From IMG/VR virus record IMGVR_UViG_2778261297_000001: a stretch of 29,570 nt of DNA. One strand, written 5' to 3'. The notes beneath the pieces are model-generated. The model worked only from the letters and a program-made list of their open reading frames with translations, did not search any database and was not told the origin of the DNA. The position numbers and the translations under genes were made by a program. Shown one piece after another: positions 21,085 to 23,556 of the stretch (positions are counted from its first letter, which is position 1; the number at the start of each line of letters is the position of its first letter). The DNA comes from a virus (taxonomy: Duplodnaviria > Heunggongvirae > Uroviricota > Caudoviricetes).

Positions 21085-23556
21085 ATGAGTAAAGTCTTTA
21101 TTTGCGCCGCTATTCCTGACGAACTGGCAACAAGGGAAGAAGGCGCTGTGGCTGTAGCCACAGCCATTGAAGCTGGCGACGAACGCCGTGCTCGAGCAAA
21201 ATTTCACTGGCAGTTCCTGGAACATTATCCGGCTGCTCAGGACTGCGCTTATAAATTTATTGTCTGCGAGGATAAACCTGGCATACCCCGCCCTGCCCTC
21301 GATTCATGGGATGCTGAATATATGCAGGAAAACCGCTGGGATGAGGAGTCTGCTTCTTTTGTCCCGGTTGAGACTGAATCCGATCCGATGAACGTCACTT
21401 TTGACAAGCTGGCCCCTGAAGTACAGAACGCTGTCATGGTTAAGTTCGACACATGTGAAAACATCACCGTTGATATGGTTATTAGCGCACAGGAATTGTT
21501 GCAGGAAGACATGGCAACATTCGACGGACATATCGTTGAAGCGTTGATGAAAATGCCAGAAGTTAACGCCATGTATCCGGAGCTTAAGTTGCACGCCATT
21601 GGGTGGGTTAAGCATAAATGTATTCCTGGTGCTAAATGGCCCGAAATTCAGGCAGAGATGCGCATCTGGAAAAAACGTCGCGAAGGTGAACGCAAGGAAA
21701 CCGGAAAATACACGTCTGTTGTTGATCTCGCCCGCGCCAGAACCAATCAACAGTACACTGAAAATTCAACAGGAAAAATCAGCCCGGTCATTGCTGCCAT
21801 TCATCGCGAATACAAGCAGACATGGAAAACACTGGATGACGAACTGGCCTACGCTCTCTGGCCTGGTGATGTGGATGCCGGAAACATTGACGGCAGCATC
21901 CATCGCTGGGCAAAAAAAGAAGTTATCGACAACGACCGCGAAGACTGGAAGCGTATCTCGGCATCAATGCGCAAACAGCCTGATGCCCTTCGCTACGACC
22001 GCCAGACTATTTTTGGCCTTGTCCGTGAGCGTCCGATCGACATTCACAAAGATCCCATAGCACTGAACAAATATATCTGCGAATACCTGACGACAAAGGG
22101 CGTGTTTGAGAATGAAGAAACAGACCTGGGCACTGTTGATGTTCTCCAGTCATCAGAAACACAAACTGATGCAGTGGAAACTGAGGTATCTGATATCCCA
22201 AAAAATGAAACCGCGCCGGAAGCTGAACCATCTGTAGAGCGTGAGGGGCCGTTCTATTTCCTCTTCGCAGATAAGGACGGAGAAAAATACGGTCGCGCAA
22301 ACAAACTTTCTGGTCTGGATAAGGCACTGGCTGCTGGCGCCACTGAAATCACAAAAGAAGAATATTTTGCCCGAAAAAATGGCACATACACGGGCTTACC
22401 GCAAAATGTAGATACCGCTGAAGATTCAGAACAACCAGAGCCGATAAAAGTTACCGCTGACGAAGTAAACAAAATTATGCAGGCAGCCAATATCAGCCAG
22501 CCTGACGCCGATAAGTTGCTTGCTGCATCACGTGGTGAATTTGTTGAAGGGATTAGTGACCCGAATGATCCGAAATGGGTTAAGGGGATCCAGACCCGCG
22601 ATTCTGTGAACCAGAACCAGCATGAATCGGAACGGAACTACCAAAAAGCGGAACAAAACAGCACAAATGCGTTACAAAACGAGCCAGAAACGAAACAGCC
22701 TGAACCAGTGGCGCAACTGGAAGTGGAAAAAGTCTGCACCGCCTGCGGTCAGACCGGCGGCGGCAACTGCCCTGATTGTGGCGCGGTGATGGGCGACGCA
22801 ACATACCAGGAAACATTCGATGAAGAGTATCAGGTTGAAGTTCAGGAAGATGATCTGGAGGAAATGGAAGGCGCTGAACATCCACACAAGGAGAACACTG
22901 GCGGCAATCAGCATCACAATAGCGATAATGAAACTGGCGAGACGGCAGATCACTCAATTAAGGTGAACGGTCATCACGAAATCACATCCACCAGCAGGAC
23001 GTGTGACCATCTAATGATCGACCTTGAAACCATGGGAAAAAATCCTGATGCCCCGATCATCTCAATAGGTGCAATATTTTTCGATCCGCAAACCGGAGAT
23101 ATGGGACCGGAATTTAGTAAGACTATCGATCTGGAAACTGCTGGCGGAGTCATTGATCGGGACACCATTAAATGGTGGCTTAAGCAATCACGCGAAGCGC
23201 AATCTGCCATTATGACCGATGAAATCCCGTTAGATGATGCACTGTTACAATTGCGGGAATTTATCGACGAAAACTCCGGTGAATTTTTTGTTCAGGTTTG
23301 GGGAAATGGAGCCAACTTCGACAACACGATTTTGCGCCGTTCATACGAACGGCAGGGGATCCCCTGCCCGTGGCGTTACTACAACGATCGCGATGTACGC
23401 ACAATCGTTGAGCTGGGGAAAGCCATAGACTTCGATGCCAGAACGGCTATTCCATTCGAAGGTGAGCGCCATAATGCACTTGATGACGCCCGTTACCAGG
23501 CAAAATACGTTTCAGTTATCTGGCAAAAACTGATCCCGAGTCAGGCTGATTCTTAA
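21085..23556 (+). CDS. RecE-like (exodeoxyribonuclease VIII-like N-terminal/middle region) protein with Zn ribbon and C-terminal DEDDh 3'-5' exonuclease domain, 823 aa
   Basis: Middle segment [33 protein letters not shown] recalled from Rac RecE; [16 protein letters not shown] zinc ribbon; C-terminal motifs IDLETMG (Exo I), [12 protein letters not shown] (Exo II), [10 protein letters not shown] (Exo III). Confidence 0.8.
   Translation: [823 protein letters not shown]

Follow-up and report, generated by a model that had tools for sequence, protein, structure and literature searches.

RecE/RecT is the workhorse of recombineering. For the N-terminal part of RecE (~600 residues), the only known effect is a boost to linear-linear recombination (PMC11611040). 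The locus described here raises the question of what this part of RecE does when the nuclease behind it is of another kind and no annealing protein is encoded beside it. The locus belongs to a Qin-type prophage between ydfJ and rspB, contained in a DNA stretch of 29,570 nucleotides (IMG/VR virus record IMGVR_UViG_2778261297_000001; hereafter, the window), in which an open reading frame (ORF) at 21085..23556 encodes a protein of 823 amino acids (aa). Our analysis revealed that this protein consists of a RecE-type scaffold followed by a DEDDh exonuclease domain.

A RecE-type scaffold ending in a DEDDh exonuclease domain

The gene and the parts of its product map to the window as follows.

21085..23556, + strand: intact ydfE, called as an ORF with an ATG start; 823-aa RecE-scaffold::DEDDh exonuclease fusion
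21085..21804, + strand: head, aa 1-240; distant homologue of the RecE N-terminus (PF06630), from hhalign and AlphaFold2
21868..22959, + strand: middle region, aa 262-625, homologous to RecE aa 277-590, from BLASTP, NF007259, and AlphaFold2
22735..22779, + strand: zinc ribbon, aa 551-565, recognized by its motif CxxC-x7-CxxC; the RecE counterpart, CNACGQTGGDNCPDC, is nearly identical
23008..23523, + strand: DEDDh (DnaQ-like, Rv2179c/DexA-type) 3'-5' exonuclease domain, aa 642-813, from PF16473 and 8KEL

Since the protein is 99% identical across aa 1-256 to the product of the K-12 pseudogene ydfE, which is disrupted by IS2, the gene represents the intact ydfE allele. Its head is predicted by AlphaFold2 to comprise an alpha/beta subdomain (aa 1-95) and a helical subdomain (aa 105-206), both with a predicted local distance difference test score above 90. 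A Pfam scan returned no direct PF06630 match to this head, and hhalign aligned it with the RecE N-terminus over 230 columns at 97% probability (E=9e-11). The middle region (aa 262-625) aligned with residues 277-590 of K-12 RecE by BLASTP (E=1e-59, 39% identity), and the alignment ends just before the RecE nuclease domain. An initial annotation, made from the sequence without database searches, had recognized a RecE-like segment and a zinc ribbon here; both lie inside this alignment and are nearly identical to K-12 RecE. In the predicted structure, a confident helical subdomain (~aa 245-340) is followed by long acidic low-complexity linkers. The NCBIfam model for exoVIII (NF007259) is matched by aa 246-625 only at model positions 271-602 of 877, and the score of 280.4 bits falls below the equivalog cutoff of 1269, so that the protein does not qualify as RecE itself. 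The zinc ribbon is common to K-12 RecE, RecE-2 of phage 75/02 Stx, and two of the loci surveyed below (L097 and L173), and it is missing from most other fused homologues. The 823-aa protein thus has the features of the RecE non-catalytic region, namely a head of the PF06630 kind and a middle with a zinc ribbon, and by sequence comparison its entire non-catalytic part is homologous to the RecE N-terminal region.

The C-terminus is of another family. PF16473 ('Rv2179c-like 3'-5' exoribonuclease') matches aa 642-813 with E=2.3e-67 and 226.5 bits (cutoff, 27), and the match spans positions 2-177 of the 177-position model. The catalytic residues D646/E648 (Exo I), D746 (Exo II), and H796/D801 (Exo III, Hx4D) align with D7/E9/D119/H186/D191 of T4 DexA and are invariant in 6 diverged homologues. 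In addition, the domain matches the 8KEL/8KEN chains in the PDB (E=1.6e-6), which are T4 DexA structures (PMC12153337). The PD-(D/E)XK domain PF12684 was not found in the 823-aa protein by a scan that detects it in K-12 RecE at aa 614-849 (E=4e-28), where the 5'-3' nuclease is assigned to RecE aa 564-866. Accordingly, the claim of the initial annotation that DnaQ-like Exo I, II, and III motifs stand in place of a RecE-type nuclease holds, and the hidden Markov model (HMM) search that it proposed as a check assigned the C-terminus to a nuclease family and not to a non-nuclease fold. Its other proposed check, comparison with the disrupted K-12 ydfE, gave the identity reported above.

RecE of Rac provides the closest parallel. 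Both genes belong to an early-left operon upstream of xis and int, both share the non-catalytic homology including the zinc ribbon, and the products are of similar length (823 versus 866 aa). However, RecE carries a 5'-3' nuclease of the PD-(D/E)XK type (PF12684) and is followed by recT, whereas YdfE carries a DEDDh domain (PF16473) of predicted 3'-5' polarity and has no recT. T4 DexA (exonuclease A) and the E. coli protein EcD belong to the same DEDDh subfamily, with the catalytic residues aligned, and DexA is phage-encoded like the 823-aa protein. Unlike it, they are stand-alone proteins of ~190-227 aa, with ~30% identity to the C-terminal domain of YdfE. PF16473 was founded on Rv2179c of Mycobacterium tuberculosis, a bacterial exoribonuclease that stands alone and has no phage or recombination association.

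Annealing partners and exchangeable payloads

In the window, tblastn with RecT, Bet, and Erf gave no match better than chance, and none was found with a Rad52-like single-strand annealing protein, SSB, Gam, Abc2, lambda Exo, or the RecE nuclease domain. The same query set found nothing in the complete genomes of HannyBb, mEp460_ev081, and PPompW_EH1846. A 205-aa hypothetical protein in the HannyBb pL operon was considered as a hidden annealase and rejected, as it belongs to phrog_35040 of unknown function and has neither a Pfam match nor annealase similarity.

A survey of one genome per species (GTDB) with the DEDDh alignment as query yielded 80 loci, 17 of which, in different species, hold intact fused genes of 641-828 aa. 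The record titles of these fused loci include Escherichia, Enterobacter, Dryocola, Pluralibacter, Buttiauxella, Kluyvera, Atlantibacter, and Phytobacter, among others. Within 7 kb of these 17 genes, there is no gene for an annealase, SSB, Gam, or a 5'-3' exonuclease. The 97 ORFs flanking the fused loci matched 25 Pfam families, with only integrases, excisionases, CI-type repressors, Rrf2, DicB, and DUF1482, and no annealase or SSB family among these matches. By contrast, recT comes after Rac-type RecE genes. The 823-aa gene is directly followed by xis and has no adjacent gene for RecT, Red-beta, Erf, a Rad52-like protein, or Sak4, as a member of a SynExo pair would. The earlier observation that xis, and not recT or bet, comes next is hence borne out and extends to the 17 fused loci and the 3 complete phage genomes.

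Some of the surveyed enterobacterial prophage loci carry record titles of Veillonella parvula (with 100% identity to E. coli), Geobacteraceae, Actinomycetes, and Chryseobacterium (L097, L114, L125, and L149). L097, L114, and L125 are metagenome-assembled genomes, and L149 is labelled an isolate assembly; these loci are probably binning or assembly contaminants rather than evidence of a real host range.

The scaffold is not confined to one catalytic domain. An exhaustive search with aa 1-380 against 1.84 billion representative proteins gave 172 clusters in all. A separate homologue search with the same residues was saturated by near-identical partial E. coli entries and added only the newer Pfam accessions PF27430 and PF27432. 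Domain scans of the long cluster members and of phage homologues uncovered the following combinations of head and C-terminal payload.

PF06630-type head with PD-(D/E)XK (PF12684): K-12 RecE
YdfE-type head with PD-(D/E)XK (PF12684): P0128, P0229
YdfE-type head with DEDDh (PF16473): the 823-aa protein of the window
PF06630-type head with DEDDh (PF16473): phage 813R8, P0131, P0228
PF06630 fragment plus YdfE aa 82-375, with DEDDh (PF16473): P0124
PF06630-type head with no payload: the 682-aa protein of phage 75/02 Stx ('RecE-2', PMC12315714), followed by gam-recT-YqaJ exo
YdfE-type head with a domain without Pfam assignment: P0130, P0133, P0141, and Pectobacterium phage ZF40 gp07

RecE-2, from a Shigella phage, shares the head and the middle scaffold with its zinc ribbon; unlike the 823-aa protein, it has no nuclease domain, and the gam-recT-YqaJ exo set after it is separate. 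The last combination was settled by structure prediction only, in which the payload on the same scaffold is a Rad52-fold annealase. By sequence, a Rad52-like domain stayed below threshold, with Pfam E-values of 0.012 and 0.12 and E ~2 for a profile against the PDB, and an HMM run against the survey ORFs found nothing. These scaffold::Rad52-like fusions, which include ZF40 gp07, phrog_2489, and phrog_7838, resemble the 823-aa protein in their YdfE-type head, their RecE-like middle, and their position between cI and int. Based on the predicted structures, phrog_2489 and phrog_7838, both labelled 'exonuclease', appear to be annealase fusions. A stand-alone Rad52-like member was seen in Pseudomonas phage LKA5 (L095:2962-6520), in a module that also encodes a DUF1351 protein, an SSB, and a DEDDh exonuclease of another Pfam family (PF00929, RNase_T); this is a further 3'-5' exonuclease inside an annealase module, outside enterobacteria.

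The exchange has left a trace in the DNA. The segment for aa 471-823 (22495-23556) is nearly identical (synonymous divergence, dS, 0.01-0.1) between genes with unrelated heads (813R8 and L097). In the comparison with L003 and L097, the 5' halves, with RecE-type versus YdfE-type heads, are saturated with substitutions, and in L097 xis and int are also near-identical. Near-identical 3' halves joined to saturated 5' halves indicate, at the level of sequence, a very recent recombination junction near aa 470. A scan of IMG/VR with aa 472-823 returned only copies that are 98-100% identical, with no diversity.

DEDDh domains of this type also occur unfused. The closest such homologue is gene 29 of Salmonella phage g341c (56% identity to the C-terminal domain), in a pL operon with the order kil, erf, ssb, gene 29, abc2. 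Like the 823-aa gene, the stand-alone lambdoid DnaQ-like nucleases (g341c gene 29 and epsilon34 DnaQ; PMC12315714) belong to the early-left operon; unlike it, they are unfused, ~182 aa long, and often contiguous with erf, ssb, and abc2, which the fused form never is. DnaQ-like 3'-5' nucleases have been listed as likely members of lambdoid Rec modules and also occur sporadically near int (PMC12315714, published in 2025). Pfam scans of 130 ORFs upstream of stand-alone loci gave SSB (4, plus 2 SSB_1), ERF (2), Rad52_Rad22 (2), RecT (1), AAA_24 (1), and DUF2800 (2). Four unrelated annealase families occupy the same neighborhood as stand-alone DEDDh genes. At many other stand-alone loci, the upstream genes encode DUF2303 and a YfbR-like HD protein, or an integrase gene comes directly after. 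Among L108-L170, ORFs within 3 kb upstream of the DEDDh gene encode DUF2303 at 10 of 45 loci and a YfbR-like HD 5'-deoxynucleotidase at 6 of 45, forming a recurrent trio that is often beside int and that we take to resemble yfdQ/yfdR of CPS-53. The gene contexts in Pseudomonas phage PAE1 and in a Vibrio phage were uninformative.

Operon, distribution, and Chi sites

The neighbors of the 823-aa gene, in the operon order DicF RNA, dicB, ydfD, 823-aa gene, xis, int, are listed below together with a Chi octamer inside the gene.

20389..20440, + strand: DicF small RNA (sRNA), same early-left operon (Rfam RF00039, 76.7 bits)
20615..20803, + strand: dicB, cell-division inhibitor, operon gene upstream (PF05358, E=1e-39; PGAP)
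20800..20991, + strand: ydfD, DUF1482 lysis protein, directly upstream of the 823-aa ORF (PF07358; PGAP)
22988..22995, - strand: Chi octamer (minus-strand reading GCTGGTGG) exactly where the middle region meets the DEDDh domain, ~aa 635-637; conserved in HannyBb, mEp460_ev081, and PPompW
23629..23880, + strand: excisionase xis (DUF1233), directly downstream of the 823-aa ORF (PF06806, E=1.6e-31)
23915..25195, + strand: tyrosine integrase int (PF00589 and PF12167; PGAP), with the prophage end beside rspB

The gap between the 823-aa ORF and xis is 72 bp, and int comes next. The order dicB-ydfD-exo-xis-int was also found in HannyBb and mEp460_ev081. In the window, an IS1202-like (ISEsa1) transposase remnant (19350-19988, - strand; region 19000-20389) takes the place of the K-12 Qin segment dicC/dicA/ydfA/ydfB/ydfC, so that in this strain the DicF-dicB-ydfD-exo-xis-int operon lacks its repressor and promoter region. 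Since no sigma-70-like promoter was found on the + strand from 19800 to 21085, the copy of the gene in this prophage may be a transcriptional orphan. Rfam also reported two ordinary Qin features unrelated to the exonuclease, namely the IS009 sRNA (3843-4041, - strand, 221 bits) and a cspA-type thermoregulator leader (9405-9789, - strand, 114 bits) upstream of the prophage cold-shock gene cspI.

The gene is widespread. Among 5,426 complete E. coli genomes, 2,257 matched 80% or more of the 4.9-kb segment, and PGAP labels the product in them '3'-5' exonuclease' or 'exonuclease'. Full-length copies occur in isolated phages, namely HannyBb (99.3%), PhiR42_1, Tritos, mEp460_ev081 (88.8%), and Evi (84%), and 70 of 80 IMG/VR copies are intact at 823-828 aa. 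Relative to the E. albertii allele, the ratio of nonsynonymous to synonymous divergence (dN/dS) is 0.27 overall and 0.11 in the head. Broken copies exist, with those of K-12, Shigella (L142), and Leclercia (L156) disrupted and the PPompW copies frameshifted. Judging from these ratios and counts, the gene is under purifying selection, functional, and common, and is no relic.

Further hints concern the dependence of these phages on their host. The Chi octamer at the junction has the 'top strand' orientation in phage coordinates, and a recombination hotspot exactly at the domain-swap junction may be more than coincidence. Top-strand Chi sites number 5 in HannyBb, 7 in mEp460_ev081, and 3 in PPompW, with ~0.85 expected from composition, and RusA is encoded by mEp460 and PPompW. 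Lambdoid phages that have no Rec module are Chi-rich, and their growth is aided by RecBCD; the prototype, LLS, replicates with an O-only module, has invertible tail fibres, and has CI/Cro proteins most similar to those of mEp460_4F5 (PMC12315714). The annotation of HannyBb shows the same O-only and invertase features. The Chi counts and RusA are consistent with reliance on host RecBCD/RecA.

What the fusion may do

Given these data, we postulate, with a probability of roughly 0.5, that the 823-aa protein is an exonuclease directed by its RecE-type scaffold to DNA 3' ends, which acts early in lytic growth together with host recombination enzymes and is not half of a SynExo pair. The C-terminal 5'-3' PD-(D/E)XK exonuclease of RecE would have been replaced by a 3'-5' exonuclease of the DexA/Rv2179c type. 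In lambdoid phages of the Qin/mEp460/HannyBb type, the gene is the last large one in the early-left operon (pL), which DicA represses. Because of this position, the product is expected on induction or infection and should be absent while the lysogen is repressed. Residues 1-625, which form the head and the middle, would probably be a targeting or tethering module, in the role of the equivalent part of RecE, delivering the nuclease to DNA ends or to recombination or replication intermediates. There, the DEDDh domain would remove nucleotides from free 3' ends, and by analogy with DexA, single-stranded tails would be the likely preferred substrate. Most likely the enzyme would work beside host RecBCD/RecA, possibly by trimming 3' tails or flaps or by adjusting how ends are processed in recombination-dependent growth, because the phages that carry it have no annealase, SSB, or anti-RecBCD protein, yet have Chi sites and, in some cases, RusA. 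We favor a role in recombination or DNA-end metabolism because the scaffold is homologous to RecE, because the same scaffold is also fused to a RecE-type nuclease or to the predicted Rad52-fold annealase, and because stand-alone DEDDh genes lie beside Erf, Rad52, RecT, AAA_24, and SSB.

Several points weigh against this proposal. PF16473 is named after an exoribonuclease, Rv2179c, so that RNA may be the substrate. Only ~8 of the ~45-55 stand-alone survey loci adjoin annealase-type genes (Erf with SSB, SSB, or RecT). Int-proximal DnaQ-type genes have not been counted in any recognizable Rec module, and 3'-5' DNA exonucleases generally antagonize rather than promote recombination (quoted in PMC12315714). 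Fold searches with the scaffold in the PDB and BFVD gave no informative match and thus no indication of a binding target. The Chi enrichment, moreover, is modest; it fits reliance on the host and is not decisive.

A broader version of the proposal, which we offer tentatively and consider somewhat doubtful, is that the N-terminal two-thirds of RecE constitute a portable targeting module, which lambdoid phages would combine interchangeably with nucleases of 5'-3' or 3'-5' polarity or with a Rad52-fold annealase, or leave without a payload. The DEDDh form would then represent an annealase-independent strategy, in which the phage brings a targeted 3'-end exonuclease only and uses or restrains host RecBCD/RecA at its Chi-bearing DNA.

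Alternatively, the enzyme might serve HREX-type defence or superinfection exclusion, as a DexA-like exonuclease that spares host DNA and degrades the 5-hydroxymethylcytosine (5hmC)-modified DNA of incoming T-even phages. EcD, the stand-alone E. coli DexA homologue, does degrade T4 DNA in vitro, and its expression from a plasmid protects from T4 (PMC12153337); the match of the DEDDh domain to the DexA structures and the very common occurrence of the carrier prophage in E. coli point the same way. The 823-aa protein is not EcD itself, as the residue numbering makes EcD a short stand-alone protein. The reading is nonetheless unlikely, since a gene in a repressor-controlled early-left operon, with no sigma-70-like + strand promoter of its own, is expected to be silent in the lysogen, and PADLOC-DB v2 gave no family match at E<=0.01, either for the 823-aa protein or for its neighbors. 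Moreover, the DexA residues for tetramer formation and 5hmC recognition are not clearly conserved in YdfE. Where HREX proteins have lost D90 and retained W152 and D169, YdfE has Asp at the D90 equivalent and Tyr in place of W152, and D169 lies beyond reliable alignment. Defence would also leave the RecE-type scaffold and its alternative nuclease and annealase fusions unexplained.

Equally improbable in our view is an anti-defence or RNA-processing enzyme, that is, an early 3'-5' exo(ribo)nuclease acting on defence RNAs, msDNA, or linear signalling oligonucleotides, or processing phage transcripts. The naming of PF16473 would suit it, as would early expression, when anti-defence genes typically act, and the missing partner annealase. 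However, we saw no anti-defence neighbors or known anti-defence homology, and DexA, the nearest phage relative that has been characterized, degrades DNA. Stand-alone homologues sit among ssb, erf, and abc2, and the scaffold is common to RecE and the annealase fusions. The initial annotation had leaned toward such a role: its view that the gene is not part of canonical recombineering stands, with no annealase found anywhere checked, while anti-defence or general nucleic-acid processing gained no positive evidence, with no PADLOC match and no defence-related neighbors seen.

Less probable still is a scavenging nuclease that recycles nucleotides from broken host DNA in lytic growth, with a scaffold irrelevant to recombination. 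Host DNA scavenging is among the established roles of DexA (PMC12153337), and the DEDDh domain is homologous to DexA, but degradation of the host chromosome is not a general trait of temperate lambdoid phages, no endonuclease partner was seen in the operon, and a RecE-homologous scaffold of ~625 aa under purifying selection would go unexplained. Finally, the loss of the dicA/dicC promoter region to the IS remnant and the broken copies listed above might suggest that the gene is a mosaic without function, left over from recombination of Rac-like prophages with others. We regard this as very improbable in view of the intact copies in viral contigs and isolated phages, the low dN/dS, the recurrence of the fusion in 17 species with diverged sequences, and the intactness of every catalytic residue.

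Part of this picture is already known. The database label of the protein (PGAP '3'-5' exonuclease', WP_001515375.1; full-length PHROGs family phrog_2082) is essentially correct, DnaQ-type nucleases in lambdoid early-left operons have been published (PMC12315714), and lambdoid mosaicism makes a nuclease swap unsurprising in principle. In the searchable literature, we found no recognition of YdfE as a complete RecE scaffold with a swapped nuclease, and no report of the systematic absence of an annealase or of a Rad52-fold annealase on the same scaffold. The literature on ydfE, Rv2179c, and PF16473 yielded nothing relevant to the 823-aa protein.

As a practical by-product, the 'exonuclease' label of PHROG 2489 and 7838 apparently belongs to annealase fusions. 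The same scaffold on four payload states, including an opposite-polarity nuclease and an annealase, provides a natural domain-swap series for finding the target of the scaffold, and with it a concrete way into the N-terminal region of RecE. A large class of very common Qin-type E. coli prophages, and live phages too, would carry a predicted targeted 3'-5' exonuclease as their sole recombination-type gene, which bears on the recently described split among lambdoid phages between those with a Rec module of their own and those depending on host RecBCD and Chi (PMC12315714).

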